Positions 8,574 to 45,051 are shown, numbered from the stretch's first letter. The stretch: DNA of 64,000 nt from an uncultured Gemmatimonadaceae bacterium (GCA_964583815.1 CAZOYA010000002.1:596-64595); one strand, 5' to 3'. Notes: generated by a model not told the origin, from the sequence alone. A program made the numbers and translations.

Positions 8574-8903
8574 ATGAAGACGCCCTGGTTCCACATCCTG
8601 CTCGCGCTCGCCGACGCCACGCTGCACGGCACCGCGATCATGGAGGACGTGCTCGACCGCTCCGGGGGTCGGGTGCGGCTCTGGCCCGGCATGCTCTACG
8701 GATCGCTGAGGGACCTGGAGGAGGCCGGCTGGATCCGCGAGGTGGATGCGCCGCCGGACGCGCCCACGGAGGGCGGCCGGCGACGGTTCTACCGGATCAC
8801 GCGCGAGGGGCGGCGGGTGCTGCACGACGAGGTCGAGCGTCTGAGCGCGCTCGTGCGGGCGGCCCGGGCGAAGCGGATCGGCGCGGGGGGCGAGCACGCA
8901 TGA
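8574..8903 (+). CDS. PadR-family transcriptional regulator
   Basis: wHTH pattern: HILLALADATLHGTAIMEDV...LYGSLRDLEEAGWI...RRRFYRITREGRRVL. Confidence 0.9.
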   Translation: MKTPWFHILLALADATLHGTAIMEDVLDRSGGRVRLWPGMLYGSLRDLEEAGWIREVDAPPDAPTEGGRRRFYRITREGRRVLHDEVERLSALVRAARAKRIGAGGEHA

Positions 8904-11587
8904 GCCCGCGCTCGGCGCCTCGCGACCCGGGCGACGGGGACGCGGCACGCGCGCGTCGCGTCTACCGTGTGCTGCTGAGGGCCTTCCCGCAGGCCCATCG
9001 CGAGCGGTACGGACCGGACATGGAGGAGGCGTTCCTCGCGCTGCTCGAGCGGGAGGCGGCGCGGGCGGGGCCGTGGGGCCGCGTGCGATGCTGGCTCGGC
9101 GCCGGCCTCGATGCGTGGGGTCGGGGGCTGGCGGCGCGCGCGCGGGGCGTGCGCCGCGGACGCGGGGGAAGACGGACGAGAGGAGGGGAGGGGATGTCCA
9201 CGTTCCTGTCGGACGTACGATTCGCGCTCCGGACCCTGGCGAGGCGGCCGGCCTTCACGGCGGCGGCGGTCTCGACGATCGCGCTCGGAATCGGCGCGAA
9301 CACGGCGGTGTTCACCGTCGTGAACGGGTTCCTGCTGGAGCCGCTCCCGTACGAGGAGCCGGAGCGGCTCGTCTCGCTCGTCGACGTGAACCCCGAGCTC
9401 GGGCGTCCGGCGAGCAGCGTCAGCCCGGCCAACGCGTGGGACTGGCGATCACGCAGCCGGACGCTCGAGGATCTCGCGCTCTTCTACGAGGACGGCTTCA
9501 ACCTCACCGGGGACGGCCTGCCCGAGCTCGTTCCGGCGGTGCGGGTCACCCCGAACATCCTGCGGGTGCTCGGGCGCACGCCCGCCCTCGGCCGCGACTT
9601 CTCGTCCGACGAGGTGGGCGAGGGCCGCCACCAGGTCGCGATCCTCACCGACGGCTTCTGGGCTCGCCGGTTCGGCCGCGATCCCTCCGTGGTCGGAGCG
9701 ACCCTCGACCTCGACGGCTACGCGTACACGGTCGTCGGGATCATGCCGCCGGACTTCCGGTTCCTCGACGAGATGCCGGACGTGCTCGTGCCGCAGGACG
9801 TGCACCCGGACGGCGCCGAACGGGCGGGCCGCTACGCCGAAGCGCTCGGGCGCCTCGCGCCCGGTGCCACCCTGGACGGCGCGCGCGAGGAGCTTCGCGG
9901 TCTCGCCCGCGCGCTGGAGGCCGAGCACCCGGACGCGAACCGAGGCTGGACGGTGGAGGTGGTCCCGCTCCGCGACCAGCTCCTGGGACGGATGGCGCGG
10001 CAGGCGTCCCACATGCTCATGGCGGCCGTGGGCCTGGTGCTCCTGATGGCGTGCGTCAACGTGGCCAACCTGCTGCTGGCACGCGCAGGATCGCGCGGCC
10101 GCGAGCTCGCGGTCCGGGCGGCGCTCGGGGCCGGCCGGGGGCGGGTCGTGCGCCAGCTCCTGACGGAGAGCCTCGTGCTCGGCGTGCTCGGCGGCGGGCT
10201 CGGGCTCGTCCTCGGCGTCGTCGGCTCCCGCGGGATCGTCCGGGCACTCCCCTCCACCCTCCCTCCCGTCTTCCGCTTCGAGGTGGACGGCACCGTGCTC
10301 GCGTTCGTGGGCCTCGTCACGGTGGGCTCGGTGCTGGTGTTCGGAATCGTCCCGGCGCTCGGCTCCGCCCGGTCCGTCGCCGAAGCGCTTCCGGGAGGCG
10401 GACGCGCCACGCCCGACCGGAGGGCCGGACGCCTCGGCGCGTCGCTCGTCGTGCTCCAGATCTCGCTCGCCGTGGTGCTCCTCGTCGGCGCCGGTCTCCT
10501 GATGAAGAGCATCGCCGGGATGCGGAGCCGGGATGTCGGGTTCGATCCCGGGAACGTCCTCGCCGTGCGGCTCGCGCCGCCGAGCAGCGCGTATCCGGGC
10601 ACGGACGAGCTGCGCACCTTCTGGAGCGAGGTGGAGGAGCGCGTCGCCGCGCTTCCCGGGGTCGTCGCGGTCGGCCAGACCCAGAGCCATCCGCTCATGG
10701 GCGAGAACTGGGGCCATACCGTCCGGATCGCAGGGGGGGAGGAGACGGACCTCCCCGTGCGCACCACCTGGGCCTCCCCCGGGCTCTTCGAGGCGCTTCG
10801 CCTCCGCGTCGTGCGCGGCCGGGCGATCGAGACGTCGGACCGCGCGGACGCTCCGCCCGTGGCGGTCGTGAACGAGACGTTCGTGGCGCGCTACCTCGAC
10901 GCCGCGTCCGACCCCCTGGCCGAGCAGCTCGTGCTCGAGCCGGGCGTCGTGATCCCGATCGTCGGCGTCGTCGAGGACGTCGTCGAGCGCGGCGTGGACG
11001 CGCCGCCCGAGCCGGCCTGGTACGTGCCCGCCAGCCACGCGGGCGCACGGACCCGCTCGCTCGTCCTGAGGACGTCCGGTCCACCCGAGGAGGCCCTGCC
11101 CGAGGTCCGGGCGGCGATCTGGTCGGTGGATCCGGATCTCCCCGTGCAGGACGTCGAGACGATGGAGGGGCTGATCCGGCGGCGCCTCCGCTCCTACGAC
11201 GTGATCGCCGAGCTGATGGCGACCTTCGCGCTCCTCTCGCTCGCGCTGGGCGTGGTCGGGATCTACGGGGTGACCGCGCAGGGGACCGAGCGCCGGAGGA
11301 GGGAGATCGGGCTCCGCGTGGCCGTCGGAGCGGGGAAGGGGGAGGTGGTCCGCATGGTCCTGCTCGACGGGGCCCGCCGGGCGGCGCTCGGCATGGCGCT
11401 GGGGCTCGTGGCGGCGACGGGTTTCTCGAGGCTCCTCGACAGCATGCTCGTGGGCGTGTCGCCGGACGACCCGGCGGTCTTCGCTTCGGTGGCGGGGCTC
11501 CTCGCCGCGGCCTCCCTCGCCGGCGTGTACCTCCCCGCCCGGAGAGCGGCGCGCGTGGATCCCGTGCAGGCGCTGGCGGGCGAGTAG
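8900..11587 (+). CDS. duplicated orphan FtsX/MacB-type permease with N-terminal prefix domain (ADOP-like), paralogue 1
   Basis: The ATG overlaps the PadR stop (ATGA). A 98-aa prefix precedes the core start MSTFLSDVRFALRTLARRPAF. There are two FtsX halves, each TM-large loop-3TM. No ATPase gene is nearby. Confidence 0.9.
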   Translation: MSPRSAPRDPGDGDAARARRVYRVLLRAFPQAHRERYGPDMEEAFLALLEREAARAGPWGRVRCWLGAGLDAWGRGLAARARGVRRGRGGRRTRGGEGMSTFLSDVRFALRTLARRPAFTAAAVSTIALGIGANTAVFTVVNGFLLEPLPYEEPERLVSLVDVNPELGRPASSVSPANAWDWRSRSRTLEDLALFYEDGFNLTGDGLPELVPAVRVTPNILRVLGRTPALGRDFSSDEVGEGRHQVAILTDGFWARRFGRDPSVVGATLDLDGYAYTVVGIMPPDFRFLDEMPDVLVPQDVHPDGAERAGRYAEALGRLAPGATLDGAREELRGLARALEAEHPDANRGWTVEVVPLRDQLLGRMARQASHMLMAAVGLVLLMACVNVANLLLARAGSRGRELAVRAALGAGRGRVVRQLLTESLVLGVLGGGLGLVLGVVGSRGIVRALPSTLPPVFRFEVDGTVLAFVGLVTVGSVLVFGIVPALGSARSVAEALPGGGRATPDRRAGRLGASLVVLQISLAVVLLVGAGLLMKSIAGMRSRDVGFDPGNVLAVRLAPPSSAYPGTDELRTFWSEVEERVAALPGVVAVGQTQSHPLMGENWGHTVRIAGGEETDLPVRTTWASPGLFEALRLRVVRGRAIETSDRADAPPVAVVNETFVARYLDAASDPLAEQLVLEPGVVIPIVGVVEDVVERGVDAPPEPAWYVPASHAGARTRSLVLRTSGPPEEALPEVRAAIWSVDPDLPVQDVETMEGLIRRRLRSYDVIAELMATFALLSLALGVVGIYGVTAQGTERRRREIGLRVAVGAGKGEVVRMVLLDGARRAALGMALGLVAATGFSRLLDSMLVGVSPDDPAVFASVAGLLAAASLAGVYLPARRAARVDPVQALAGE

Positions 11588-11744
11588 CCGGCCGGAGCGC
11601 CGCCGGCGAGCGCGGCGCGCGCTCGCACGGGGGCGTGTGGCCTCCGCCCCGACGCGGTATCTTCGGACCGCGAGTCGACGTTCCGCGCGCTCCACCGTCC
11701 ACCCGCCCCACCGCCTCCACCCCACCGCTTCGCCCGCCGACTCC

Positions 11745-13874
11745 ATGACCTCCCCCACCGGCTCCCACTGGCTCCGGGACGTCGCGGGCCACGCCGGGCT
11801 CGCGCTGGACCTGCCCGTGCGCCCCAACGTCGTGGAGCTCCGTCGTGCGTGGACGCGGGTGGTCGAGGCCTGCCGCACGAGCGACGAGGAGTTCACGCGG
11901 CGCGTGGCGGGACATTTCCGCATCGGCGTCGCCGACGTCGCGCAGCGCGATCCCCAGGCGGTGGCGCTCATCCCCGAGGGCGTGTCGAGGCGCCACGGCG
12001 TGCTCGGCCTCAGCCTCACCGAGCGCAACATCGTCGTCGCCACCTCCGATCCGTCCAACCGGTCGGCGTGGCGCGAGGTGGTGGAGCACACGGGCCGGCA
12101 GCCGGTCTACCTGATGGCGAGCCCGGTCGCGATCGCGGAGGCGCTCGAGGAGGCCTACGCCCCGAAGCGCGCGCCCCGAAACAGCCTCGAGGAGCTCGTG
12201 CGTGAGGTCGCGCGCAGCGACTTCCAGGTGGTGACCTCGGACGGCCGCGGGCGCTTCACGAGCTTCGAGCTCGAGGATCCGGCCGTGGTGCGCCTGGCCG
12301 ACGTGCTGCTCCAGCAGGCGGTCCGCCACCGCGCCACCGAGGTCCACGTCGAGCCGGGACGGGAGCGCGGCCGGGTCCGCTACCGCATCGACGGCGTGCT
12401 CCAGCACGTGGTGGCGCTCCCGCCCGAGGCGCACGACCGCCTCGTGGCGCGCCTCGCCTACCTGGCGCGCGGCGGGGCGACCGGCGAGGAGGGCGACAGC
12501 TTCACCGTGCACGTCTCCGAGACGCTGCAGCGGCGGGCGCTCCTCCTCTCGACCCCGACGCCCGACGGGGAGCTCGTCACGATCCGGCTCGTGGCGCCCG
12601 CGGAGGTCCCCACGCTCGAGCGTCTCGGCTTCGAGGCCGACGACCTCGAGCGGATCCGCGACGTGCTCCGGCGCAACGACGGGCTCGTGCTCGTGGCCGG
12701 CCCCGCGCGGGCCGGGACCTCCACGTTCGTGTACGCCTGCATGCGGGCGCTCGCGTCCCGCAACGTGCTCTCGCTCGAGAGCCGCATCGAGTGCCACGTG
12801 CCGGGCGTCACGCAGGTGCGCTACGACTCCGCCACGGGGCTCTCGTTCGCCGAGACGCTCCAGCAGCTTCTCGATCGGAACCCCGACGTGGTGCACGCCG
12901 GCGAGGTGCGGGACCTCGCCACCGCCCGGATCGCGCTCCGCACGGCGGTGACCGGACGGAAGGTGCTCGCGACCGTACACGCCCCCGACGCCCCTTCCGG
13001 GCTCCGGCGGCTGCTCGATCTCGGGCTCGCGCCGGGGCGGCTCGCGGAGTCGCTCCACGCGGTGATCTCGCTCCGGCTGGTACGACGGCTCTGTCCGCAC
13101 TGCGCCGAGACGGTCGCCGGCCCGAACGACCTCCCCCCGCGCGAGCGCAAGCTCGCGGAGCTGCTGTCGGTGCTCCCGCCCCGACGCGCGGTCGGGTGCC
13201 GCGCCTGCGCGGGCACCGGATATCTCGGGCAGCTTCCGGTGGCCGAGATCCTCGTGCTCGACCGCACGATGCGCCAGCTCGTGGAGGAGGGCTACGACGA
13301 CGCGGCGCTCCACCTGGCCGCGCGCATGGAGGGGATGCGCCCGCTGGGCGAGTCCGCGATCGACCGGGCCCGGAAGGGGCACACGACCGTCGAGGAGGTC
13401 GAGCGGGTGCTCGGCGTCGTGCCCACCCGGGCCGAGACGCCGCGCTCGGCGGGCCCCGTGCTGCTCGTCGAGGACGAGCCGCAGGACCGTCTCCTCGTCG
13501 GGTCCATCATCAGGGACCTCGGATTCGAGGTGATCGAGGCCGAGGACGGTGAGGCCGCGCTGGAGCTCCTCCGGGAGCGCGGCGGTCGCTTCTCGCTCGT
13601 GGTGCTCGACCTGGTCCTGCCCGGGATCGACGGCATCGAGGTGCTGCGGCGCCTCCGGCAATCGCTGGACACGCAGTACCTCCCGGTGCTCGTGCTCACG
13701 AGCACCACGGACCCGCGCCGCGAGATCGAGCTGCTCGACGAGGGCGCGGACGACTACGTGCTGAAGCCCGTCGCCGTGGATCGCTTCCAGGCACGCATCC
13801 GGGCCGTGCTGCGCCGGAGCGGCGTACGGATCGAGACCGGCGGGAGCGCCGAGGCGGTCGGTGCCGGCGGCTAG
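11745..13874 (+). CDS. GspE/PilB-like secretion-ATPase homologue with degenerate catalytic motifs, fused to a C-terminal response-regulator receiver domain
   Basis: T2SSE_N-like N-domain (ALIPEGVSRRHGVLGL...VVATSDP). Walker A reads GPARAGTST, with Lys replaced by Thr. Asp box is degenerate (LESRIE). NPDVVHAGEVRD and the tetra-Cys motif CPHC...CRAC are retained. REC domain: LLVEDE...VVLDLVLPGIDG...DYVLKP. Confidence 0.85.
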   Translation: MTSPTGSHWLRDVAGHAGLALDLPVRPNVVELRRAWTRVVEACRTSDEEFTRRVAGHFRIGVADVAQRDPQAVALIPEGVSRRHGVLGLSLTERNIVVATSDPSNRSAWREVVEHTGRQPVYLMASPVAIAEALEEAYAPKRAPRNSLEELVREVARSDFQVVTSDGRGRFTSFELEDPAVVRLADVLLQQAVRHRATEVHVEPGRERGRVRYRIDGVLQHVVALPPEAHDRLVARLAYLARGGATGEEGDSFTVHVSETLQRRALLLSTPTPDGELVTIRLVAPAEVPTLERLGFEADDLERIRDVLRRNDGLVLVAGPARAGTSTFVYACMRALASRNVLSLESRIECHVPGVTQVRYDSATGLSFAETLQQLLDRNPDVVHAGEVRDLATARIALRTAVTGRKVLATVHAPDAPSGLRRLLDLGLAPGRLAESLHAVISLRLVRRLCPHCAETVAGPNDLPPRERKLAELLSVLPPRRAVGCRACAGTGYLGQLPVAEILVLDRTMRQLVEEGYDDAALHLAARMEGMRPLGESAIDRARKGHTTVEEVERVLGVVPTRAETPRSAGPVLLVEDEPQDRLLVGSIIRDLGFEVIEAEDGEAALELLRERGGRFSLVVLDLVLPGIDGIEVLRRLRQSLDTQYLPVLVLTSTTDPRREIELLDEGADDYVLKPVAVDRFQARIRAVLRRSGVRIETGGSAEAVGAGG

Positions 13875-13937
13875 GCTGCGGACCAGCGGCCCGCAGGCCC
13901 GGCTCCGCGTCGGCCCGCGAGCCCCGCGGAGCGCAGG

Positions 13938-17153: not shown

Positions 17154-17156
17154 CGC

Positions 17157-20482: not shown

Positions 20483-20860
20483 CTAGTCCTCCCTGAGGCG
20501 CACCCCCGGCACGTCGCGAAAGTCCGCCGGGTTCAGCGTCCACAAGGACGCGTTCCACGATACGGCGCAGGCCGCGATGGCCAGGTCGATCTCGCGGCCT
20601 CGGGGCTCGCCTGCGCTCCGGTACAGCTCCGCGGCCTTCGCCGCTTCCAGGGGACCGAAAGGGACCGCCTGGGCGCTCGGAAAGAGCGCCTCCTGCGCCT
20701 CGAGCTCCGCGGGATCGCGCGGACCACGCAGCCACTCGTACAGCACGAGCGTCGGTACGGCGATCCGGTGTCCGTCCTCGATGGCCGAGCGGAGACGCTC
20801 GCGGACCTCGCCGTCGGAGGCGAACGCCTCGATCAGAACCGAGGTGTCCAGCAGGATCAC
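20483..20860 (-). CDS. vapC: PIN-domain toxin VapC
   Basis: VILLDTSVLIE... start, with acidic PIN residues. The GTG overlaps the antitoxin stop by 4 nt. Confidence 0.85.
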   Translation of the reverse strand: MILLDTSVLIEAFASDGEVRERLRSAIEDGHRIAVPTLVLYEWLRGPRDPAELEAQEALFPSAQAVPFGPLEAAKAAELYRSAGEPRGREIDLAIAACAVSWNASLWTLNPADFRDVPGVRLRED

Positions 20861-21147
20861 GCGCCCGACGGCTCCGCCGAAGCGCGTCCGGGGCTCCTGC
20901 GGGCGCGCCGTACGGCGGCGAGCTCCCGGTCGACCTCCGCCCGGGGGCGTTCGGGCAGGGAAGGCAGCATGCGATCGAAGGTCGCGAGCATACGCGCGCG
21001 TTCCTCGTCGCCGAGACGGCCGAGCTGCTCGTCGTAGAGCTCCAGGGCCTCCCGAACGACCTGGCTCTTCGGGATTTCCAGCCGCTCGGAGGCCCGTTCC
21101 AGGACGCGGATCGCCTGGTCGTCGAGCGTGAACGTGACCTTCTTCAT
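20857..21147 (-). CDS. vapB: ribbon-helix-helix (CopG-like) antitoxin VapB
   Basis: MKKVTFTLDDQAIRVLERASERLEIPKSQVVREALE is an RHH pattern. Confidence 0.8.
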   Translation of the reverse strand: MKKVTFTLDDQAIRVLERASERLEIPKSQVVREALELYDEQLGRLGDEERARMLATFDRMLPSLPERPRAEVDRELAAVRRARRSPGRASAEPSGA

Positions 21148-36653: not shown

Positions 36654-36738
36654 GCTTCGATTCGAAGCCCTCGCGTCCAGCGAACCGGGTTCGCTCCAGA
36701 CCTCCGCGCCCCGGCGGTCCCACCGTGCCCGCGGGCAC
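36654..36738. other. cluster of three perfect palindromes/hairpins in a 323-bp divergent intergenic region
   Basis: GCTTCGA-T-TCGAAGC (36654-36668), AGCGAAC-CGG-GTTCGCT (36679-36695) and GTGCCCGCGGGCAC (36725-36738), all read directly. Confidence 0.6.
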
Positions 36739-36832
36739 GATTGCCGATCGCCCGAGACCGGAATATAGTTATCAACTTACCCTAGTGCCGAATAGCTTCG
36801 ACGCGCCATCTGGGCGGTCGCCGGGAGGGCTG

Positions 36833-37204
36833 ATGGATCCGCAGGATGAAACCGTTGCTTCTTTCCTTCCGCTCAAGCCCGCCGATTTCGAGATCCTGTT
36901 CGCCCTCGCCGATGGATGCCTGCACGGCTACGCGATCGCGAAGAGCATCGCCGCGCATACCCAGGGAATGGTTCGGATCGAGGCGGGCAATCTGCACCGG
37001 ACGCTGCGCAAGCTGGTGAGCCAGGGGCTGATCGCCGAGACGGAGGAACGGCCCCGCGGAGAACCCGAGGACGCACGTCGCCGCTACTGGGTGCAAACGC
37101 CGCTCGGACGTGCGGTGCTCTCTGCGGAGGCGGCGCGCATGCGGGAACGTGTGGCGAGGGCTGAAGCCAAGCGGCTGATCCCCCGGAGCGCGGAGGGTTC
37201 TTGA
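36833..37204 (+). CDS. PadR-family transcriptional regulator
   Basis: FEILFALADGCLHGYAIAKSI...NLHRTLRKLVSQGLI...RRRYWVQTPLGRAVL. GGGAGGG upstream. Confidence 0.9.
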   Translation: MDPQDETVASFLPLKPADFEILFALADGCLHGYAIAKSIAAHTQGMVRIEAGNLHRTLRKLVSQGLIAETEERPRGEPEDARRRYWVQTPLGRAVLSAEAARMRERVARAEAKRLIPRSAEGS

Positions 37205-39948
37205 GGAGACCTCTCCGGGATGGTCCGCCAGCGCACCGCCTCGTCGTCGGTCTGTACCGGACCATTCTTCGGCTCTACCCGCCGTCCTGGACGGAAGCAG
37301 ATCGGCGGGACATGGCGGCGTTCTTCACCGAGCGCTACCGCGAAGCATGGGCACGAGGGGGCGCGCGTGCCGCCGTGACGGCCGCCGCCCGCGCCTTCCT
37401 GGATGCGGCCGCGACCGGCGTGATGGAGTGGCTGCGAGCGAGTCAATCCACACGACGGATCGAACGGAGCCACGGAGGAGGTATGGGAGAGGTGGTGGGA
37501 GGGATGGTGCGCGACGTGCGTGTGGCAGGACGAAGCCTTCTTCGCAGTCCGGGATTCACCCTCGCGTGCGTGCTCACGCTGGCGCTGGGGGTGGGGCCGA
37601 ACACGGCGTTGTTCTCGGTGCTTCACAGCCTCGTCCTGGCGCCTCTCCCGTATCCGGAAGCGGAGCGCCTGGTCGTGATCCGGCGCGACCTGGTGACGCG
37701 CGGCATCTCCAACTATCCGGCGGCCCCCGCCGACCTCGTGGACTACCGCGAGAACAGCGACGCCTTCTCGGCCATCGCAGGCTACGTGAGCGCGGCCCCG
37801 ATCGTGACCGACGGGAGCGACACGGAGCGCCTCAGGGGCATCTCGGCTACCCCCGAGCTGTTCGAGGTTCTCGGCGTACGGCCGGCGCTCGGACGGGCCT
37901 TTTCGCCCGAAGAAGGAATCGCGGTCGCCCCTGGCGAGGGACAGCCCCAACGCCCGTTCCCGGTGATCATCTCCCACGGATACTGGATGCGCGCGTTCGG
38001 GGGCGATCCCGACGCGGTCGGAACCGTTTTGCCGTTCGCAAACGCCAACGGCACGATCGTAGGCGTGATGCCCGAAGGGTTCCGGCTCCTGCTGTCCCCC
38101 GACGACGGCGTGCCGGCCGAGCCCGACGTCATTCTCCCGTTCACCATCGACCCGCTCGATCCTTTTCGCGGCTCGTTCTTCCTGGGCACTCTGGGCCGCC
38201 TGGCACCCGGCGTCTCCCTGGATGTCGCCGAGGAGGAGATGAAGGCGGTCGGCGCGGTGCAGCAGGCCAAGTATCCCAGTGCGCGTGCCGCAGGCACGAC
38301 CATCCGGCTCGCACGGCTCGAGGATGACGTCAGCGCCGAGGTGCGTCCGCTTCTTCTGAGCCTTGCCGGCGCCGTGGCGTTCGTGCTCCTCATCGCCTGT
38401 GTGAACGTGGCCAACCTCCTCCTGGTGCGCTCCGCCGGCCGCGCCCGGGAGATCGCCGTCCGCACCGCTCTGGGCGGAGGACGCGCACGGATCGTTCGCC
38501 AGATCCTCTCCGAGGCCGTCGTGCTGGCGACGTTGGGTGGCGTCGCCGGCGTCGCGCTCGCCTGGATGGCCCTGCCGTTCCTGGAGAGGGCCCTTCCCCC
38601 GGAGCTCCCTCGCCTGGGTGTGCTCTCGTTGAACCTCCCGGTCCTGGCTTTCTCCGTCGCAACCATATCGCTCGCGGCCCTGCTCTTCGGAGCGCTCCCC
38701 GCCGTGCGCGGTGCACGGACCCACGTCATGGGAGCTCTGCGCGGGCGCACAGGATCCGGCGGTGCGAGCGTGAGCCTGCGATCAGGTCTCGTGGTCGTGG
38801 AAGTCGCGCTCTCGTTCCTGCTGGTACTCGGTGCCGGCCTCACGATCCGGAGCTTCCTGGCTCTGACGCATGTCGATCCCGGCTTCCAGGTCGAGGGTGT
38901 GCTTACGTTCCGGGCGACGTTGCCGGCTGCCAGCTATCCAGGTGCGGACGCCCTCGGGGCGGTGAACGAGCGGTTGCGCCAGGAGTTGCTCGCCACGCCG
39001 GGAATCGAGCGTGTCGGCGCCGCGAGCGAGCTCCCCTTCGACGGCGGCGCACGCGCCGCGCCCTACGGTGGAGAGGCCGAGCTCGCGGACGGTGATGAAA
39101 GCGATCTGCGGCAGGCCTACGTGCGGACCGCGGGGAACGGCTACTTCGAAGCGCTCGAGACACCGCTGGTCGCAGGACGCTTTCTCACGTCTGATGACGC
39201 GGGCACCGACAGGGTGCTGGTGGACGAAGTGCTGGCTCAGCGGACCTGGCCGGGAGAGATGGCCGTCGGAAAGCGCATCTTCGTGAAGGTGCAGGTGCCC
39301 GGCGAATGGTTCGAGGTCGTGGGTGTGGTCGGACACCAACGGCAGACGACGCTATCGGGACCTTCCCAGGAAACGATCTACTTCGCGCCTCTGGGCGGAA
39401 TCGGCGGAGTGCCCGGTCGTTGGGTTCTCCGGACCGCCGGCGATCCCCGGGCCCTGGTGGCTGGCGTGCGCGCTGCGGTCGCGCGCGTGGACGACCGGAT
39501 CCTCGTCGAGAATCTGGAGCCGCTTTCCGCCCTCGTGAGCGAAGCTCGGGCACCGACGCGCGTGGTCGCCGCGTTCGTCGCGACCTTCGGCGCGCTCGCG
39601 CTGGCGCTCGCCCTCGTGGGGCTTTACGGGGTGATCGCCTACCTGGTCCGCGAACGCCGCGGCGAGTTCGGTCTGCGCCTGGCGCTCGGTGCGAACAGAT
39701 CGAGCATCCTGCGCGTGGTCCTGGCCCGTGGGCTTCTGCTCTCGGGCACGGGAATCGGGCTCGGGCTGCTGGGGTCCCTGAGCCTCGGCACCTTGTTGGG
39801 GACCGTGCTCGTCGAGGTTCCTTCGCCCGACGGGAGTACGATTGGCGGGGTGATCGTTCTTTTCGTGCTCATGGCAGGCTGTGCTTCGTTGATCCCGGCT
39901 CGGCGTGCACTGCAAGTCGACCCGATGGTCACGCTGCGCCAGGAGTGA
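37201..39948 (+). CDS. duplicated orphan FtsX/MacB-type permease with N-terminal prefix domain (ADOP-like), paralogue 2
   Basis: The TTG start overlaps the PadR stop (TTGA). The prefix contains LYRTILRLYPPSW...DMAAFF. The core starts near MVRDVRVAGRSLLRSPGF. Two FtsX halves. Confidence 0.9.
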   Translation: MRRPLRDGPPAHRLVVGLYRTILRLYPPSWTEADRRDMAAFFTERYREAWARGGARAAVTAAARAFLDAAATGVMEWLRASQSTRRIERSHGGGMGEVVGGMVRDVRVAGRSLLRSPGFTLACVLTLALGVGPNTALFSVLHSLVLAPLPYPEAERLVVIRRDLVTRGISNYPAAPADLVDYRENSDAFSAIAGYVSAAPIVTDGSDTERLRGISATPELFEVLGVRPALGRAFSPEEGIAVAPGEGQPQRPFPVIISHGYWMRAFGGDPDAVGTVLPFANANGTIVGVMPEGFRLLLSPDDGVPAEPDVILPFTIDPLDPFRGSFFLGTLGRLAPGVSLDVAEEEMKAVGAVQQAKYPSARAAGTTIRLARLEDDVSAEVRPLLLSLAGAVAFVLLIACVNVANLLLVRSAGRAREIAVRTALGGGRARIVRQILSEAVVLATLGGVAGVALAWMALPFLERALPPELPRLGVLSLNLPVLAFSVATISLAALLFGALPAVRGARTHVMGALRGRTGSGGASVSLRSGLVVVEVALSFLLVLGAGLTIRSFLALTHVDPGFQVEGVLTFRATLPAASYPGADALGAVNERLRQELLATPGIERVGAASELPFDGGARAAPYGGEAELADGDESDLRQAYVRTAGNGYFEALETPLVAGRFLTSDDAGTDRVLVDEVLAQRTWPGEMAVGKRIFVKVQVPGEWFEVVGVVGHQRQTTLSGPSQETIYFAPLGGIGGVPGRWVLRTAGDPRALVAGVRAAVARVDDRILVENLEPLSALVSEARAPTRVVAAFVATFGALALALALVGLYGVIAYLVRERRGEFGLRLALGANRSSILRVVLARGLLLSGTGIGLGLLGSLSLGTLLGTVLVEVPSPDGSTIGGVIVLFVLMAGCASLIPARRALQVDPMVTLRQE

Positions 39949-40081
39949 CGCACGCGGGGTGCCGTACGGGAGACGTCCTCACCCGATCCGGCCGCACCTG
40001 GCCGATCGATGGCGTGAGGCCGAGGAGCCCGAGACCGCATACCAGCACGCGGATGCCGAGACTATGTTTCGCGTCACCCAC

Positions 40082-40156
40082 GGGCGCTTAGCTCAGCCTG
40101 GTTAGAGCACCTGCCTTACAAGCAGGGGGTCGGGGGTTCGAGTCCCTCAGCGCCCA
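40082..40156 (+). tRNA. tRNA-Val (anticodon TAC)
   Basis: Full cloverleaf folded by hand: acceptor GGGCGCT/AGCGCCC, D arm GCTC/GAGC, anticodon stem CCTGC/GCAGG with loop CTTACAA, T arm GGGGG-TTCGAGT-CCCTC, discriminator A. CCA is not encoded. Confidence 0.96.
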
Positions 40157-40220
40157 TTGCGGGAGGTCGGTCCGGACAACGCCGTCGCGGAGTCCGGCGC
40201 CTCGAAACGGGCGGGCGGCC

Positions 40221-41354
40221 ATGGACACGATCCAGCAACGGCTCGAAGCGTTCGTTCCCCCGGCTCTCGCGCGCCACGACGTCCCCGGCTGCTCGATCGC
40301 CGTCGTCGACACGACGGGACCGGTGTGGTCCGGCGGCTTCGGCTACGCGGACCTGCGGTCCGGGCGCCCCGCGGGCCCCGACACCGTCTACCGGCTCTTC
40401 TCGGGCACCAAGCTCTTCACCGCGACGGCGATCCTGCAGCTGGAGGAGCGGGGCCTGCTCGCGCTGTCGGACCCCGTGGAGAGATTTCTCCCTGAGCTGC
40501 CGGCGCTCCAGGGCATCACGCTCCTCCATCTCCTCACCCACACCTCCGGGCTGAAGGACACGCTCCGCGGGTTCCTGGCGGTCTCCTTCCCGCCGGAAGC
40601 TCCGCCCTCCGCGGAGGAGGCCCTGTCCCGATACCGGCTCGCGTCCCGTCGCCCGCCCGCCGGGCGCGTCGAGTACCGGAACGTCAACTATGCGTTGCTT
40701 GGTGCGGTGGTGCGCCGCGTATCCGGGCTCGAGTACCGCGAATACGTGCAGCGCCACGTGCTGACACCGCTCGGCATGGAGGCCTCCTTCGGCCTGACCG
40801 ACGCGACCCGGCCCCGCGCGGCCACGGGATACATCGGCCGCAGGGATCCTGCTCGTATCCTGCTGGCGCTCCTCTTCCCGGGGATCGGCGGGCGGCTCTA
40901 CGGACCGGCGGCGGGCAAGCTGCGAGAGCTCCGCACCTACGACCTCGCGACCTCGGCCATCGGCGGACTCGTGGGCTCGATGCCCGACTTCGCACGCTTC
41001 CTCCACGTCCAGCTCGTGGGCGGGGACGGGGTCCTGGGTCCGGAGGCGATCCGCCGCATGCAGACGCAGGTCGCGCGCGGCGCCGCGGGCATCGAGTCCC
41101 GCGTGGGCATGGGTCTGGGATGGAAGATCGGAGAGGTCCGGGGCCGGACGTTCCTGAACCACGAGGGAGGAGGCGCGGGCTTCACGTCGGAGCTGCGGCT
41201 GTATCCCGAGGCGGGGCTCGGCGTCGCGATCGGGATGAACGCGATGAGGATGCCGACGACGATGCGCCTGGCCCACCGGATCTGCGAGGCGGTCGCGGAG
41301 CCCTCGCCTACGACGGGATCAGGAACGAGCCGGGGATACCTTCGTCGAGCGTGA
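40221..41354 (+). CDS. serine hydrolase, beta-lactamase/PBP4* family (class-C fold)
   Basis: SxxK motif in YRLFSGTKLFTATA, plus HLLTHTSGL and the NHEGGGAGF region. Confidence 0.85.
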   Translation: MDTIQQRLEAFVPPALARHDVPGCSIAVVDTTGPVWSGGFGYADLRSGRPAGPDTVYRLFSGTKLFTATAILQLEERGLLALSDPVERFLPELPALQGITLLHLLTHTSGLKDTLRGFLAVSFPPEAPPSAEEALSRYRLASRRPPAGRVEYRNVNYALLGAVVRRVSGLEYREYVQRHVLTPLGMEASFGLTDATRPRAATGYIGRRDPARILLALLFPGIGGRLYGPAAGKLRELRTYDLATSAIGGLVGSMPDFARFLHVQLVGGDGVLGPEAIRRMQTQVARGAAGIESRVGMGLGWKIGEVRGRTFLNHEGGGAGFTSELRLYPEAGLGVAIGMNAMRMPTTMRLAHRICEAVAEPSPTTGSGTSRGYLRRA

Positions 41355-41703
41355 CCAGGAGGGCGTCTCGTCGAGCGGCCAGCGCCGAAAGGTGCCCGTC
41401 CGTGGTGGTCGGGGGCGAATCGGCCCACGATGGGAGCGTGTCGGCGCCGAGGTCGTCCGTCAATCGGACGAACGGTGGACGTGTACTGCTCCGTATCTGC
41501 GCGAGGAGATCCCGGGCCGCCGCCACGCTCGGGGACAGACGCGCCTGAGGCGCGATCCTCACGAAGCCCAGCTCGGTAATCGAGCAGGTGGCGAGCACGT
41601 GGTCGGCGGGGAGCTTCGCCACCCACCGGGCGACCCTGTCGTGATGGACGTGCGCGGCATGGCCGAGCGCCAGAAGCACGTTCACGTCGAGCAGCGAGGT
41701 CAC
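41308..41703 (-). CDS. vapC: PIN-domain toxin VapC
   Basis: MTSLLDVNVLLAL...ATCSITELGFVRI...DGHLSALAARRDALLVTLD. Its start overlaps the antitoxin stop by 4 nt. Confidence 0.85.
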   Translation of the reverse strand: MTSLLDVNVLLALGHAAHVHHDRVARWVAKLPADHVLATCSITELGFVRIAPQARLSPSVAAARDLLAQIRSSTRPPFVRLTDDLGADTLPSWADSPPTTTDGHLSALAARRDALLVTLDEGIPGSFLIPS

Positions 41704-41948
41704 GGAAAATCCGCCAGCAGCGCCCGGATCTGCTCCGAGGAGACGGGCGGAACGGTCGATGGAGCTTCCATGACGGGCAGCCCGGTCACCGGATCCTCGC
41801 GGATCCGGTATCCGTGGTCCGGGACGATGGCCGAACTCGTCACGGCGCGTCGACGCAGGAACTCGGAGACCGTCAGACCGTCACGTCGCGCCAACTCGCG
41901 GATCCGCGCGGCCTCGCGTTCCGTGACCTTGAAGGTGATCGTGGGCAT
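41700..41948 (-). CDS. vapB: ribbon-helix-helix antitoxin VapB
   Basis: MPTITFKVTEREAARIRELARRDGLTVSEFLRRRA is an RHH pattern. Confidence 0.75.
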   Translation of the reverse strand: MPTITFKVTEREAARIRELARRDGLTVSEFLRRRAVTSSAIVPDHGYRIREDPVTGLPVMEAPSTVPPVSSEQIRALLADFP

Positions 41949-41965
41949 GGTATTACGGTAATACC
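41949..41965. promoter_or_regulatory. 17-bp palindrome GGTATTAC-G-GTAATACC directly abutting the vapB ATG (candidate operator / -10 region)
   Basis: Read directly. AT-rich island containing TATTAC and TAATAC hexamers. Confidence 0.45.
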
Positions 41966-42001
41966 ACCTTCCGGTGGAAGCCAGCGCGTTCCAGCCCCCG
42001 C

Positions 42002-44722
42002 CTACGATTCCCTGAGCGCCTCCGTCGGCTGGATCCGCAGGCCGCGCAGCGTGGGACGCGCCAGGGCGACCGCGCAGACGCATCCCGCGAGGATCGCGAC
42101 GAGAGTCAGCGTCAGCGGGATGTTGCCCATCTCGACACCGCGGTCGTTGCGCTCCATGTCAAGCAGCACCCACCCCCACGCCGCGCCCAGGACGAGCCCG
42201 ACTCCCACCTGGATCGCGGCGCGACGCCCCATCGCCGCGAAGATCGCGCGCGCGTCGGCCCCCAGGGCCGCGCGGATGCCGATCTCCCGCGTCCGTTGTG
42301 CGACGGTGAAGGACATCATCGCGTAGAGTCCCGTCGCGGAGAGGAGAACGACGGCGCACGCGAGCGCCAGCACGAGCAGGAAGATAGAGCGTAACAGGAG
42401 CGACTCGCTCCGGATCGTGTCCGCGACCAGACCCCCGTCGCTCACGATCGCCTCGGGGTCGAGCGAGGCGGCGATCCGTCGGAACCGTGGAACGAACGTC
42501 TCGGGGTCGCCCGCCACCTGCACGGTGTAGCGGACCGGGTCGACCTCCCCGGGTGCGAGCGGATGGTAGACCGCCGCGTCCCGCGCCGAGTTCTCGGGAT
42601 TCGTCCCGAACGAGCCGACCACGCCCACGATCTCGTACCACTCGTCCGCGTCGAGGGAGGCCGGGGATCCCCCCTGCGGCTCGTAACGGAGCCGCTGTCC
42701 GACCGCGTTCCGCCCGCCGAGGAAGTCGCGGACGAAGGACTCGTTCACGATCACCGCCGTGTGGCGGGTCCCGGGCGGTCCCTCGACATCGCCCGCGTTG
42801 AAGTCGCGCCCTGCGAGGATCGGGCGGCCGAGCCCCGCGAAGAACGACACGTCGACCTTGGGCACGGCCACGTCCCATTCGGGCATCTCGAATCCCGGAG
42901 GAGGCGTCTCGAGGAGAACGCTGCCGTTCGGAGGTGTGAGGCCCGGCACGTGGACGCCCATGCCGATGCCGCGAACGGCCGGGTCCTCGGAGAGCCGCGC
43001 GAGGAGGGTGCGCTGGATCTCCTCGAGGTGCCGCCGCCGGGCGAGCGAGTCGGATGCACCGGGCGCGCCCGCAGGACCGGGCTCCGGCATCGCGAGCGTG
43101 GCGTAGACGTACCCTTCCGGATCGAAGCCGAGGTCGCCCTGGTGGGCGAACGCGCTCCGCACCCACGTGACGCCCATCGCGAGAAACCCCACGGACAGGG
43201 CGATCTGGCTCACGATCAGCAGCGAAGCTCCCAAGCCGAAGCGCGCCGAGGCTGTCCGCGAGGCCGCGCGCTGGAGGTTCGCCTGGAGCGCGCGCCGGGT
43301 CAGCGGGAGCGCGGGCAGGACGCCGGCCACGATGGCGCACAGGGCGGCGAGGCCGAGCGCGATCGCCACGAGGCGGGGCGTGAGCCGGAGGTCCGCCCAC
43401 CAGGGGAGCAACCCGTACGGAGCCTGGAGGCGCATCACCCAGGAAGCGAACGCGTTGGCGCCGAGCAGACCCACGCCCGTGGCGGCCATCATGAGGACGA
43501 AGGCTTCGACGAACAACTGGGTGAGGATGCGCCCGCGACTGGCGCCGAGCGCGGTGCGGATCGTGATCTCGCCGGAGCGCGCGGCGGTGCGCGCGAGGAT
43601 CAGCATGCCGACATTGCCGCACACCACCATGAGGAGCCCGAAGATCAGCGTCTGGAGGATCACGATCTCCGTCTGGCCCCAGAATGCGCCGTCCTCGGCG
43701 TCCTCGTTGAGCAGCAGGACCGCCATCCCGACCACCTCGCCCAGGAGGTGCTCGAAGCGCTCCGGTTCGTCGGCCGCCCGCCGCTCGGTGAGCCGGGTCA
43801 TCTCGACGCGGGCGTCCTCGAGCGACACCCCGCCCGCGAGCCTTCCGAAGACGAAGACGAGGGGGCCGGTGCCGATCGGGAGATCCAACGCACGGGCCCG
43901 GAAGGGGAGCCAGACCTGCGTGTACGAGGGAAAGGCGAAGCCCGCCGGCATGACGCCGACGACCGTGTGATCGGTGCTCCCGATGCGGATGGACCGCCCG
44001 AGGATCGCCGGATCGCGGGCGAAGCGCGCGCTCCAGAGCTCTTCCCCGATGAGCGCCACGTCGGGCGCTCCCTCGCGCTCGTCCGCCGGGCCCAGCAGAC
44101 GTCCGACCAACGGCCGGGCGCCGAGGATGTCGAACGAGGAGGCGGTGAGACGCGCCGCCGGAACGGGCGATCCGCCGGTCTCGGCGACGTCGACGTTCAC
44201 CGAGTACGCCTGCGCGGCGCCGATCGACGCGAGCGAGGCCAGATCCTTCCAGCGCTCGAAGTCGTGCACGGTGGACAACCGGGCGTGCTGGAGGTCCACG
44301 TCGTAGTGGCGGACCCCGACCACGCGATCGGCTTCCGGGACGGGAAGATCGCTGAAGAGGACGTCGAGGACGTGCAGGAGGGTGAGCGACGCCGGAATGC
44401 CCAGGCCCAGCGTCAGCACCGCCACCACGGTGACCATGGGCTGCCTGGCGAGCATGCGGAGGCCCAGCTTCGCATCGAGCCCGATGCCGTTCGTGACGAG
44501 CCGGCGCAGGGCGGCGGTCCAGACCGCCCAGGCCGATGCCAGCGCGTTCCAGGCGTAGCGCCGGACGGCCGGGCCGCGTCCCCGCCCACGCTCGAGGTCG
44601 CGTGCGAAGGAGGCGTCCAGGTCCGACGCGATCCAGGATGCGTCGCGCCCGCGGATCAGCAGCCGGGCGAGCGCGCGCAGGAGACGGGGCGGGCGCGTGG
44701 GGTCCCGCGGGTCGTGGCCCAT
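42002..44722 (-). CDS. duplicated orphan FtsX/MacB-type permease with N-terminal prefix domain (ADOP-like), paralogue 3
   Basis: The ATG overlaps the PadR stop (TGATG); a TTG one codon upstream is also possible. Prefix RLLRALARLLIRGRDASW...DASF; core LGLRMLARQPMV...; two FtsX halves. Confidence 0.9.
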   Translation of the reverse strand: MGHDPRDPTRPPRLLRALARLLIRGRDASWIASDLDASFARDLERGRGRGPAVRRYAWNALASAWAVWTAALRRLVTNGIGLDAKLGLRMLARQPMVTVVAVLTLGLGIPASLTLLHVLDVLFSDLPVPEADRVVGVRHYDVDLQHARLSTVHDFERWKDLASLASIGAAQAYSVNVDVAETGGSPVPAARLTASSFDILGARPLVGRLLGPADEREGAPDVALIGEELWSARFARDPAILGRSIRIGSTDHTVVGVMPAGFAFPSYTQVWLPFRARALDLPIGTGPLVFVFGRLAGGVSLEDARVEMTRLTERRAADEPERFEHLLGEVVGMAVLLLNEDAEDGAFWGQTEIVILQTLIFGLLMVVCGNVGMLILARTAARSGEITIRTALGASRGRILTQLFVEAFVLMMAATGVGLLGANAFASWVMRLQAPYGLLPWWADLRLTPRLVAIALGLAALCAIVAGVLPALPLTRRALQANLQRAASRTASARFGLGASLLIVSQIALSVGFLAMGVTWVRSAFAHQGDLGFDPEGYVYATLAMPEPGPAGAPGASDSLARRRHLEEIQRTLLARLSEDPAVRGIGMGVHVPGLTPPNGSVLLETPPPGFEMPEWDVAVPKVDVSFFAGLGRPILAGRDFNAGDVEGPPGTRHTAVIVNESFVRDFLGGRNAVGQRLRYEPQGGSPASLDADEWYEIVGVVGSFGTNPENSARDAAVYHPLAPGEVDPVRYTVQVAGDPETFVPRFRRIAASLDPEAIVSDGGLVADTIRSESLLLRSIFLLVLALACAVVLLSATGLYAMMSFTVAQRTREIGIRAALGADARAIFAAMGRRAAIQVGVGLVLGAAWGWVLLDMERNDRGVEMGNIPLTLTLVAILAGCVCAVALARPTLRGLRIQPTEALRES

Positions 44723-45051
44723 CAACCCTCCGCGAGCCGGTCGAGCGCGGAGATCTGTCCGGTCGCCATCGACTGGAACGCGTCGTGCGCCTCGCGGAGC
44801 TCGCGCGCGCCTTCCGGGGAGAGTGCGTAGTACTTACGCGGCCTGCCCATGCGCCCCTGCGGCTTCTCGGTCCGTGAGCGCACGAGCCCCCGCTCCTCCA
44901 GCCGGGCGAGCGTCGTGTAGATCGCGCCGACGGAGACCGTGCGCCCGGTCCGCTCTTCGAGGTTCTCGCGGATCGAGACGCCGTAGGCGTCATCCCCGAG
45001 CTGGAGGACCGAGAAGAGGATGAGCTGCTCGAAGGCGCCGAGGTAGGGCAT
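44722..45051 (-). CDS. PadR-family transcriptional regulator
   Basis: FEQLILFSVLQLGDDAYGVSIRENLEE...IYTTLARLEERGLV...PRKYYALSPEGAREL. Confidence 0.9.
   Translation of the reverse strand: MPYLGAFEQLILFSVLQLGDDAYGVSIRENLEERTGRTVSVGAIYTTLARLEERGLVRSRTEKPQGRMGRPRKYYALSPEGARELREAHDAFQSMATGQISALDRLAEG

Follow-up and report, generated by a model that had tools for sequence, protein, structure and literature searches.

PadR-coupled duplicated permeases of a Gemmatimonadota genome as candidate self-regulated modules served by a shared ATPase pair

Gene organization of the four permease loci

The window, that is the whole 64,000-nucleotide stretch of DNA analysed here, comes from a Gemmatimonadota MAG of 73% GC. 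Three PadR genes in it overlap the starts of duplicated FtsX/MacB_PCD permeases of about 900 amino acids (aa) that belong to the ADOP family (TIGR03434), and a fourth paralogue of these permeases is also present. The features are as follows.

8494-8514, putative operator of PadR1: two perfect AT-rich palindromes that overlap, 60-80 nt 5' of the PadR1 ATG
8574-8903, plus strand, PadR1: 109 aa, PadR-family wHTH regulator (PF03551, E 9.9e-13; ORF 8472-8903); 8526 is an alternative start
8900-11587, plus strand, ADOP1: 895 aa, class A prefix (TIGR03434, 854.2 bits)
36762-36779, AT-rich patch 5' of PadR2: candidate operator or promoter
36833-37204, plus strand, PadR2: 123 aa, PadR-family wHTH regulator (PF03551, E 1.8e-12; ORF 36725-37204)
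37201-39948, plus strand, ADOP2: 915 aa, class A prefix from aa 1 to ~100 (TIGR03434, 760.6 bits)
42002-44725, minus strand, ADOP3: 906-907 aa, divergent, class C prefix related to perm_prefix_2 (TIGR03434, 513.5 bits)
44722-45051, minus strand, PadR3: 109 aa, PadR-family wHTH regulator (PF03551, E 5e-16; ORF 44722-45132)
45086-45105, AT-rich patch 5' of PadR3: candidate operator
54336-57092, minus strand, ADOP4: 918 aa, RelE/ParE-fold N-terminal domain (TIGR03434, 874.4 bits)
57109-57375, minus strand, Phd/YefM-type antitoxin-like DNA-binding protein: 88 aa (PF02604, E 3.3e-12)

The overlap of PadR stop and permease start that had been predicted at three loci could be read directly at each junction, as ATGA, TTGA and TTGATG, in support of the translational coupling originally described. 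The ATG of ADOP1 overlaps the PadR1 stop (gcATGAgc at 8900), ADOP2 has a TTG start that overlaps the PadR2 stop (tcTTGAgg at 37201), and the PadR3/ADOP3 junction (ggTTGATGgg at 44725/44722) offers two ADOP3 starts, TTG 44725 or ATG 44722, both of which overlap the PadR3 stop. In ADOP1, a three-helix class A prefix (8900-9193, aa 1-98) and a Gly/Arg linker precede the core, which has 8 TM helices and two periplasmic MacB_PCD domains. Two stretches each of PF12704 (MacB_PCD) and PF02687 (FtsX) are found in all four permeases, in agreement with the two FtsX/MacB halves originally described. The family label (ADOP/permease prefix) is also confirmed, as ADOP1, ADOP2 and ADOP4 exceed the curated TIGR03434 cut-off of 622.3 bits; ADOP3, below it, is a divergent relative. 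Identity to ADOP1 is 37% over the core for ADOP2 and 29% for ADOP3. All three PadR proteins are recognized by PF03551, the generic PadR model of Pfam, and none reaches the TIGR03433 (padR_acidobact) cut-off of 101.8 bits, with scores of 48.8 (PadR1), 44.6 and 42.7 bits. The GC3 of PadR2 is 0.76, under the genome norm of ~0.93. The acidobacterial lineage belongs to the original definition of ADOP (TIGRFAMs description), but this tag does not apply here: the host is a Gemmatimonadota, and for the closest homologues the source names given are Gemmatimonadota, Gemmatimonadetes or Longimicrobiales.

The PadR-permease modules are real but not peculiar to the window. The genome carries ~50 ADOP loci and 39 PadR hits, which form 32-33 PadR-ADOP pairs. 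Among the 32 pairs that were scored, 19 have the permease start right on the PadR stop, with a 4-nt overlap (NTGA) in 18 and TGATG in one; in the others, 1-33 nt separate the two genes.

The palindromes upstream of PadR1 are ATACGATATCGTAT (8494-8507) and CGTATATATACG (8503-8514), and AT-rich palindromic loci with arms of at least 6 number only four in the 64-kb window. We regard 8494-8514 as a candidate PadR1 operator. The patch upstream of PadR2, AATATAGTTATCAACTTA, contains the dyad AGTT-N3-AACT, a weak operator candidate because it is short. Upstream of PadR3 the minus strand reads TTTTACCACAGTGTAGTATT, with an imperfect dyad, TACCACAGTGTAGTA, that may be an operator. Nearly every PadR gene of the genome has its own distinct dyad in an upstream AT-rich patch, and in Listeria the PadR repressors that adjoin membrane-protein genes mainly control their own operons (PMC6624303).

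The predicted fourth paralogue does exist, but the start assigned to it at 56759 was wrong. ADOP4 starts at ATG 57092 with a RelE/ParE-fold N-terminal domain (57092-56808), followed by a (GGA)7-containing Arg/Gly linker and by the core from 56759, and fusions of this type are kept in proteins of 909-926 aa elsewhere. Since the protein starts at 57092 and includes this conserved domain, the 'adjacent toxin gene' is part of the permease: of the two 'adjacent toxin-antitoxin genes', one is the RelE-fold domain fused to ADOP4. The AF2 model of the domain (pLDDT 80.5) has the order beta-alpha-alpha-beta-beta-beta, and its top Foldseek matches are all RelE, YoeB, HigB or ParE, the best being RelE 1wmi_A (E 1.3e-5, TM 0.76). 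Neither the domain nor its stand-alone homologues match any Pfam or NCBIfam model, toxin HMMs included, at E up to 10. The Phd/YefM gene takes the position of PadR in this module, and it lies directly 5' of a homologous permease in three of three unrelated contigs. Partner binding is the defining property of the Phd/YefM and RelE families. In ADOP4, the RelE-fold domain is most likely there for partner binding only.

Permease fold and the source of ATP hydrolysis

The AF2 model of ADOP1 (pLDDT 92.4, pTM 0.84) has 8 TM helices, two beta-rich domains and coupling helices at residues 400-408 and 800-808. Its top Foldseek match is E. coli YbbP (9ge6_A, E 3.7e-19, 890 aligned columns), and the best-ranked systems are YbbAP, MacB, LolCDE and BceAB, all four at probability 1.00, together with YtrEF and HrtBA. 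All six are ATPase-driven. The predicted fold is thus that of type VII (MacB-type) permeases, with FtsX TM helices, a periplasmic Porter/Sabre domain and a TM2-TM3 coupling helix. Among 36 paralogues, the most conserved parts are TM2-coupling helix-TM3 (aa 376-435) and aa 781-810 (REIGLRVAVGA), while the periplasmic domains vary most. The coupling-helix motif is equally frequent in ADOPs with and without a prefix.

As originally predicted, there is no ABC ATPase in the window, nor any PF00005 match on the contig (C2) to which it belongs. Genome-wide, the 3.5 kb on either side of ~45 ADOP genes contain no PF00005 ATPase. In relatives of the same order, eight loci have a MacB-type NBD gene followed directly, on the same strand, by one to three high-scoring ADOP genes; as these ADOPs lie in ATPase-permease operons, being 'orphan' is not a property of the whole family. 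The ADOP-linked NBDs of the relatives form two classes, whose best matches in our genome are the tandem genes NBD1 and NBD2 (contig C153, 7223-8900), with identities of 69-81% and 68-73%, respectively. All 31 relatives that bear ADOPs have NBD1 and/or NBD2, as against none of 10 ADOP-free ones (Fisher 8.9e-10, a statistic that ignores shared ancestry); 13 of the ADOP-bearing relatives have one of the two only, some being cut by contig ends. Another orphan MacB-type ATPase, on contig C92, occurs in 39 of 41 relatives irrespective of ADOPs. The NBD pair, itself at a contig end, adjoins genes for a sigma-54 response regulator and a histidine kinase, and this NBD1-NBD2-RR-HK cluster is kept in two other genomes. 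The 'missing' ATPase is, judging from these sequence comparisons, most likely this conserved pair on C153, common to all ADOP copies. The energy source, which had been called undescribed, can hence be approached through the NBD-ADOP adjacency in relatives, the orthologues on C153 and the co-occurrence in 41 relatives, all of which argue against an ATPase-less machine. One ATPase pair for ~50 permeases is an unusual stoichiometry.

In an alternative model, the prefixed ADOPs have abandoned ATP and act as receptors, the MacB fold working in reverse, driven by ligand, with release of PadR through the prefix as sole output; the prefix may then fill the ATPase docking site. The lack of ABC ATPase genes near the ~45 ADOP genes and in the window is consistent with this model, as are the cytoplasmic N-terminal position of the prefix, which is that of the fused ATPase in MacB, and the presence of only two candidate ATPase genes for ~50 permease genes. 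We nevertheless consider it unlikely. Conservation is highest in the coupling helices, and equally so in prefixed and prefix-less copies. The two kinds of copy are interleaved in the core phylogeny (C194 groups with C25, for instance, at a support of 99), so that the core function is not split between them. In addition, NBD1/NBD2 co-occur perfectly with ADOPs, and a sensor with its own operon as sole known target would have no output.

The prefix and its PadR partner

A prefix of 73-108 aa is present on all 32 PadR-linked ADOPs. For 11 ADOPs without PadR, the reading frame leaves at most 10 extra residues before the core in seven; in the others there is the RelE domain, a contig end or a long open frame. 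The prefixes fall into three sequence classes, A (ADOP1 and ADOP2), B, and C (ADOP3), so that the 'loose pattern' first seen in the three window prefixes is there but merges two classes. Of the genome copies, all eight class B prefixes match perm_prefix_1 (NF038403, cut-off 30 bits) and seven of nine class C prefixes match perm_prefix_2 (NF038404, cut-off 35 bits). The ADOP1 and ADOP2 prefixes match neither model, and that of ADOP3 remains below the NF038404 cut-off (14.1 bits, E 0.042). Class A prefixes match no Pfam or NCBIfam model, HAAS (PF22564) included; an alignment of class A with class C by hhalign gives P 2.4e-4 and a probability of 44%, and searching PDB sequences with the class A profile gave chaperonin noise only.

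On the PadR tree, PadR1 and PadR2 lie in the class A clade and PadR3 in the class C group, and the three prefix classes map to three clades with a minimum of 2 changes, whereas shuffled labels need 14.4 on average and were as low as 2 in none of 200 shufflings. Placed on the tree of permease cores, these labels require 20 changes, against a mean of 22.1 after shuffling. As PadR clade and prefix class correspond exactly, in spite of shuffled permease cores, PadR and prefix move as a single unit.

These properties bear on a second alternative, in which PadR is a plain repressor that senses a small molecule and never contacts the permease, the prefix being there for folding, membrane insertion or ATPase tuning, and the gene overlap for co-expression only. 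Characterized PadR-family repressors such as PadR and LmrR do bind ligands directly. In Listeria, an efflux pump gene is under the control of LadR (PMC6624303), which also fits a plain repressor. This alternative is nonetheless improbable in our view, as it does not account for a prefix that tracks PadR (32 of 32, versus few or none without PadR), nor for a PadR clade that predicts prefix class while the cores are shuffled. Moreover, the Phd/YefM and RelE-fold variant, which recurs elsewhere, swaps both partners together, and this is hard to explain unless they form a functional pair. The original prediction was to be abandoned if a dedicated ATPase encoded elsewhere drove these permeases and if PadR made no contact with them: adjacency and co-occurrence come close to the first point, while the reading in which PadR contacts the prefix is strengthened rather than refuted.

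That the prefix is an annotation artefact, an untranslated leader kept open by high G+C ahead of a permease that starts at the conserved internal Met of the prefix/core junction, would agree with the public gene call for ADOP1 (P0001, 797 aa, beginning at the core Met), with a purine-rich SD-like linker ahead of that Met and with the frequency of long spurious ORFs at 73% GC, but it is very hard to reconcile with a prefix that is conserved as protein (kept in 74 of 84 homologues, 44% identity), that folds in the AF2 model of ADOP1 into helices 12-26, 31-56 and 58-89 at pLDDT 85-96, that matches curated NCBIfam models in classes B and C, that has a core-like GC3 (0.72-0.93) and whose start codon lies exactly on the PadR stop in the 19 pairs described above. 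An additional internal start may yield a prefix-less ADOP isoform.

Proposed mechanism and comparison with known systems

The best explanation overall, which we hold with moderate confidence, is that these loci are self-regulated type VII ABC modules with an ATPase pair supplied in trans and PadR docking on the prefix. Each locus would be a self-contained module of a type VII (MacB-like) ABC system, in which ADOP, YbbP-like, combines two MacB-type halves in one chain, with two Porter/Sabre domains and two coupling helices. ATP hydrolysis would be supplied by the shared MacB-type NBD1/NBD2, for prefixed copies as well; NBD1 and NBD2 would probably form a heterodimer, matching the two unequal permease halves, and ~50 permease paralogues would draw on this single pair. 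PadR would act at an AT-rich dyad specific to the module to repress the bicistronic operon of which it is part, and the cytoplasmic prefix would be a HAAS-like docking or transducer domain for the cognate PadR. Substrate load or conformational cycling of the permease would then alter the hold of PadR on DNA and induce the module, in a one-component counterpart to the flux sensing of BceAB-BceS. ADOP4 would follow the same logic with other parts, the Phd/YefM DNA-binding protein and the RelE-fold domain fused to the permease.

A wider version of this model is more doubtful. The ~50 ADOPs could form an interchangeable sensor-effector repertoire, with one shared, heterodimeric NBD1/NBD2 ATPase, each permease being silenced by a private PadR or Phd/YefM protein that docks on a swappable N-terminal cassette. 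Just as tentatively, the cassette would be either a helical prefix of class A, B or C or a RelE fold that has been disarmed, and NBD1/NBD2 would be placed under the sigma-54 two-component system, apart from the permeases. If true, this would amount to modular one-component flux sensing, with sharing of an ATPase in trans on a scale undescribed for exporter-type ABC systems.

The window modules are a known kind of system, a catalogued two-gene unit made of a PadR repressor and a double MacB-type permease. They share with the ADOP family (TIGR03434) and its PadR (TIGR03433) the domain order, the paralogous expansion and the upstream PadR, with no adjacent ATPase in the window modules. They differ from it by their Gemmatimonadota host, by ADOP3 and three PadRs below the cut-offs, and by a class A prefix that lies outside both prefix models.

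The logic of PadR coupling had been called undescribed, but a signalling role for HAAS-PadR dyads has already been proposed (PMC11237479; Ravi et al., 2024, mSystems). That study explicitly names HAAS fusions to FtsX-like TM domains with MacB/PCD and proposes, as a hypothesis only, that the membrane protein passes a signal on to PadR. In HAAS-PadR dyads as in ADOP modules, an N-terminal cytoplasmic domain is carried by a multi-TM protein beside a standalone PadR. The HAAS core of three consecutive alpha-helices is also found in the ADOP1 prefix model. The GxP kink of the third HAAS helix is less clear: in the consensus of homologues, Gly57 is near-invariant at the helix 2/3 break but has no conserved Pro after it, and the kink as a whole does not appear to be conserved. 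The ADOP1-3 prefixes match none of PF22564, DUF1700, DUF1129 and DUF1048 at E up to 10, and one of 17 class B and C prefixes matches PF22564 (E 0.005). The ADOP prefixes thus appear to share the working logic of HAAS-PadR, membership in HAAS being unproven, and the behaviour of PadR and prefix as a cassette fits the published hypothesis.

ADOP4 resembles type II toxin-antitoxin pairs of Phd/YefM and RelE/YoeB by its upstream Phd/YefM gene and its RelE fold, but differs from RelE/YoeB toxins in that the toxin-fold domain is fused to an 800-aa permease and lacks the usual C-terminal catalytic region.

The closest structural relative, E. coli YbbAP-TesA (PMC12646458; PDB 9ge6), has, like ADOP1, a fused double FtsX permease, two periplasmic domains and a mechanotransmission architecture. 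Sequence identity between YbbP and ADOP1 is only 15%. YbbP is encoded beside its ATPase, YbbA, partners with the hydrolase TesA and has neither PadR nor prefix, whereas ADOP1 has both of the latter and no adjacent ATPase. BceAB, another structural relative of ADOP1 (Foldseek 8s5g, 7tcg), suggests a functional parallel, by analogy only: in the BceAB-BceRS modules of antimicrobial-peptide resistance, an FtsX-type permease acts on its substrate and reports its own activity to the regulator that induces it, as we propose for ADOP. The Bce system does so through a histidine kinase and a response regulator, with an adjacent ATPase; ADOP would do so through a one-component PadR docked on the fused prefix.

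Duplicated permeases in the window and in the genome

The metagenome-assembled genome that carries the window comprises 3.8 Mb in 387 contigs (89% complete, 73% G+C), and the source names of the closest homologues point to Gemmatimonadota and Longimicrobiales. The window encodes three PadR winged-helix regulators (identified with Pfam) and four large duplicated orphan permeases (ADOPs), each with two MacB_PCD and two FtsX stretches:

PadR1: ends at 8903, plus strand
ADOP1: 8900–11587, plus strand
PadR2: ends at 37204, plus strand
ADOP2: 37201–39948, plus strand
PadR3: ends at 44722, minus strand
ADOP3: 42002–44725, minus strand
ADOP4: 54336–57092, minus strand

All four permeases were assigned to NCBIfam TIGR03434 (ADOP), three of them above the 622-bit cut-off and ADOP3 below it (513 bits). 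Direct reading of the sequence bore out the predicted PadR/permease junctions (ATGA at 8900, TTGA at 37201, TTGATG at 44725/44722), and the predicted absence of an ABC ATPase from the window also held, as contig C2, whose positions 596–64595 make up the window, has no match to PF00005. The frame of ADOP4, first placed with a start at 56759, actually begins at ATG 57092. The four permeases are only 29–37% identical to one another, and are thus old copies rather than recent tandem duplicates.

Several other features of the window were observed. G+C is 68–70% between 30000 and 46000 versus 73–75%, and module 2 (PadR2 and ADOP2) has a GC3 of 0.72–0.82 versus about 0.93 elsewhere, a composition that hints at a more recent acquisition of that part of the contig. 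A T2SSE/PilB-like secretion ATPase, not of the ABC type, with MshEN and a C-terminal response-regulator receiver domain, lies directly 3' of ADOP1 (11637–13874). Just downstream of ADOP3 is a VapBC-like pair (minus strand) made of an RHH/NikA-like antitoxin (41700–41948) and a PIN toxin (41308–41703); the palindrome TGGTATTACGGTAATACCA (two 9-nt arms and one central base, 41948–41966) touches the antitoxin start, and a further RHH and PIN pair is present at 20483–21147 (minus strand).

The whole genome contains about 50 ADOP loci, amounting to approximately 3.5% of its length, together with 39 PadR matches and 52 stretches above the ABC ATPase (PF00005) cut-off; no ABC ATPase was closer than 3.5 kb to an ADOP. 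Around 33 ADOPs have a same-strand PadR domain ending 279–401 nt upstream, and among the 32 pairs in which the junction was scored the genes overlap by NTGA in 18 and by TGATG in one, the others being 1–33 nt apart. All 32 PadR-linked copies carry an extension of 73–108 amino acids before the ADOP core (the prefix), whereas in 7 of 11 PadR-less copies the frame leaves at most 10 extra residues; the other four comprise ADOP4, which has a RelE domain, long open frames, and contig-end cases. Three ADOP cores lie in frames open for 200–990 amino acids upstream (C1:24024–26405, C63:783–3212 and C13:16264–18708), which could reflect either spurious ORFs at high GC or additional fusions at the N-terminus. 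With four copies in 64 kb, the genome as a whole having about one every 76 kb, the window shows only a modest excess: the four paralogues of the original prediction are there, but they are not a local speciality, the pattern being genome-wide.

Pairing of PadR regulators with permease prefixes

By sequence, three classes can be told apart among the 32 prefixes. Class A has 15 members, those of ADOP1 and ADOP2 among them, and the motif YRxLLRxxPxxFRxRxGxEME; class B has 8 members, and class C has 9, one of them from ADOP3. Classes B and C are already modelled in NCBIfam, perm_prefix_1 matching 8/8 class B and perm_prefix_2 matching 7/9 class C prefixes. In single-sequence scans class A matched no NCBIfam or Pfam model and showed no link to HAAS, a short helical cytoplasmic domain paired with PadR; its profile gave only weak chaperonin matches among PDB sequences, and hhalign found a weak relation to class C (P 2.4e-4, probability 44%) but none to class B.

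The prefix is a real part of the protein, given its conservation in 74 of 84 ADOP1 homologues from other samples (identity 44%, versus 55% for the core) and its predicted fold. The AlphaFold2 model of ADOP1 (pLDDT 92.4, pTM 0.84) places helices at residues 12–26, 31–56 and 58–89 (pLDDT 85–96), with a disordered Gly/Arg linker after the third. In the public annotation ADOP1 (P0001, 797 amino acids) begins at an internal methionine and lacks the prefix. A word-indexed search with ADOP1 residues 1–98 was empty, a result that is uninformative since full-length homologues carry the prefix, and that probably arose because the words were drawn from Arg/Gly-rich stretches. The prefix/core junctions at 56760–56780, 9170–9196 and 37470–37506 encode Gly/Arg-rich linkers and are purine-rich, with a (GGA)7 run in that of ADOP4. 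Right after the linkers is a conserved in-frame methionine, which is the start of the prefix-less paralogues and of the public ADOP1 call; internal initiation there might also yield an isoform without the prefix.

On a tree of the PadR proteins the prefix classes form three clades, with two label changes, the minimum, against a shuffled mean of 14.4 (0 of 200 shuffles as low) and SH-aLRT supports of 95 (class A) and 97 (class B). The same labels on the tree of permease cores require 20 changes (22.1 on average after shuffling), and well-supported groups are mixed: one class B copy with two class C copies (support 100), a class B copy with a prefix-less copy (99), and a class B copy with ADOP4 (94). 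PadR clade thus equals prefix class while the cores are mixed, which indicates that PadR and prefix have repeatedly been exchanged together relative to the permease body. Such exchange would be expected if PadR and prefix touch each other, and is not expected if PadR is a mere neighbouring ligand sensor.

Nearly all PadR genes have an AT-rich patch (11–16 of 20 bases A or T, the genome being 73% GC) about 70–135 nt 5' of the winged-helix domain, and many patches contain a dyad, every one different. Upstream of PadR1 two overlapping perfect palindromes (8494–8514) form one of just four AT-rich palindromic loci in the window; PadR2 and PadR3 have weak dyads only. In Listeria, PadR repressors adjoining membrane-protein genes have their own operons as main targets (PMC6624303). 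These dyads and the Listeria precedent make autorepression at private operators plausible.

Candidate ATPases encoded in trans

The best Foldseek match of ADOP1 is YbbP of Escherichia coli YbbAP (9ge6_A, E 3.7e-19, 890 columns), followed by MacB, LolCDE, BceAB, YtrEF and HrtBA, all of them ATPase-driven type VII ABC systems (PMC12646458). Conservation among 36 paralogues is highest in TM2–coupling helix–TM3 (residues 376–435), in residues 781–810 with REIGLRVAVGA, at the C-terminus, and in TM1 together with the amphipathic N-terminal helix, and lowest in the periplasmic domains. The coupling motif is not less frequent among prefixed copies, 15/32 of which are positive in both halves by a strict regular expression that under-counts and serves solely to show that these copies are not degenerate.

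The genome has nine or ten MacB/LolD-type ATPases, most beside ordinary FtsX genes. At eight loci in relatives of the same order, MacB-type ATPase genes of two classes lie directly 5' of one to three prefix-less, high-scoring ADOPs on the same strand. The best matches to these classes here are:

NBD1: C153:8145–8900, 69–81% identical to the first class
NBD2: C153:7223–7888, 68–73% identical to the second class

NBD1 and/or NBD2 occur in 31/31 relatives with ADOPs versus 0/10 without, the latter spanning three families (Fisher 8.9e-10, uncorrected for phylogeny). The adjacency in relatives and this co-occurrence indicate that the "orphan" ADOPs most likely share the trans-encoded NBD1/NBD2 pair, for which the comparative evidence is strong but is not proof. 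In the host's family, genes for a sigma-54-type response regulator and a histidine kinase come after the pair, and no ADOP is found within 10 kb of it. This cluster of four genes (C153:4505–8900 here) is conserved in two other genomes, again without a permease gene in the vicinity, which suggests that the shared ATPase supply is under its own two-component control. A machine lacking an energy source, as the original finding implied, finds no support, and the apparent lack of an ATPase can probably be explained in an ordinary way.

An orphan MacB-type ATPase, C92:10429–11136, was rejected as a dedicated partner. It adjoins an ECF sigma/anti-sigma pair and has no FtsX gene beside it, and its orthologues (67–88% identity) are found in 39 of 41 relatives, among them every ADOP-free genome of reasonable completeness, so that it is not ADOP-specific.

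The ADOP4 variant and known systems

Homologues of residues 1 to about 90 of ADOP4 are few (14 among 1.8 billion representatives), and several of them run on into an ADOP core in other organisms; the domain is present in seven other proteins, of 909–926 amino acids. Its AlphaFold2 model (pLDDT 80.5) is beta-alpha-alpha-beta-beta-beta, and Foldseek returned exclusively RelE, YoeB, HigB or ParE toxins (best 1wmi_A, E 1.3e-5, TM 0.76), while no toxin HMM matched. A Phd/YefM antitoxin gene (57109–57375) lies directly upstream, as it does for the homologous permease in 3/3 otherwise unrelated contigs. The places of PadR and the helical prefix are thus taken by a DNA-binding protein and, joined to the permease, its natural binding partner, and ADOP4 is an independent version of the same logic.

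Secreted hydrolase genes recur beside ADOPs (40221–41354 and 50729–54174 in the window; loci L012 and L014), encoding beta-lactamase-fold serine hydrolases, a D-aminoacylase-type amidohydrolase, and M14 and M24 peptidases. The arrangement is reminiscent of YbbAP-TesA, in which a type VII permease teams up with a periplasmic hydrolase, and may be coincidental.

Soil Acidobacteria, Gemmatimonadota and Bacteroidota have ADOPs in great abundance, and no member is known to have been studied experimentally; the PadR/ADOP neighbourhood belongs to the TIGRFAMs family descriptions. A full-text literature search on "duplicated orphan permease" found two incidental mentions only. The window modules are a real, well-delimited case, in a Gemmatimonadota genome, of this catalogued and very widespread architecture. 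Nor is the coupling logic undescribed, as had been thought: Ravi et al. (2024; PMC11237479) defined the HAAS–PadR dyad, cited a fusion of FtsX-like TM plus MacB/PCD, and proposed that HAAS relays a membrane signal to PadR. The prefixes here fail the HAAS HMM match, and of the GxP kink a glycine (Gly57) is nearly invariant but no conserved proline follows it in the homologue consensus, so that they count only as possible HAAS members; the working logic nevertheless appears to match the proposal. For the original finding the outcome, including the probable answer on the ATPase, is mostly deflationary. What the analysis adds is the strict agreement between PadR clades and prefix classes, in contrast to permease cores that are shuffled, the class A prefix of ADOP1 and ADOP2, which has no existing model, the Phd/RelE-fold variant, and concrete trans-ATPase candidates, a direct route to testing ADOP function. 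The matched regulator and prefix cassette likewise offers a way to test what these permeases do, and whether a transcription factor that docks on a transporter in the manner of HAAS is a real alternative to two-component signalling.
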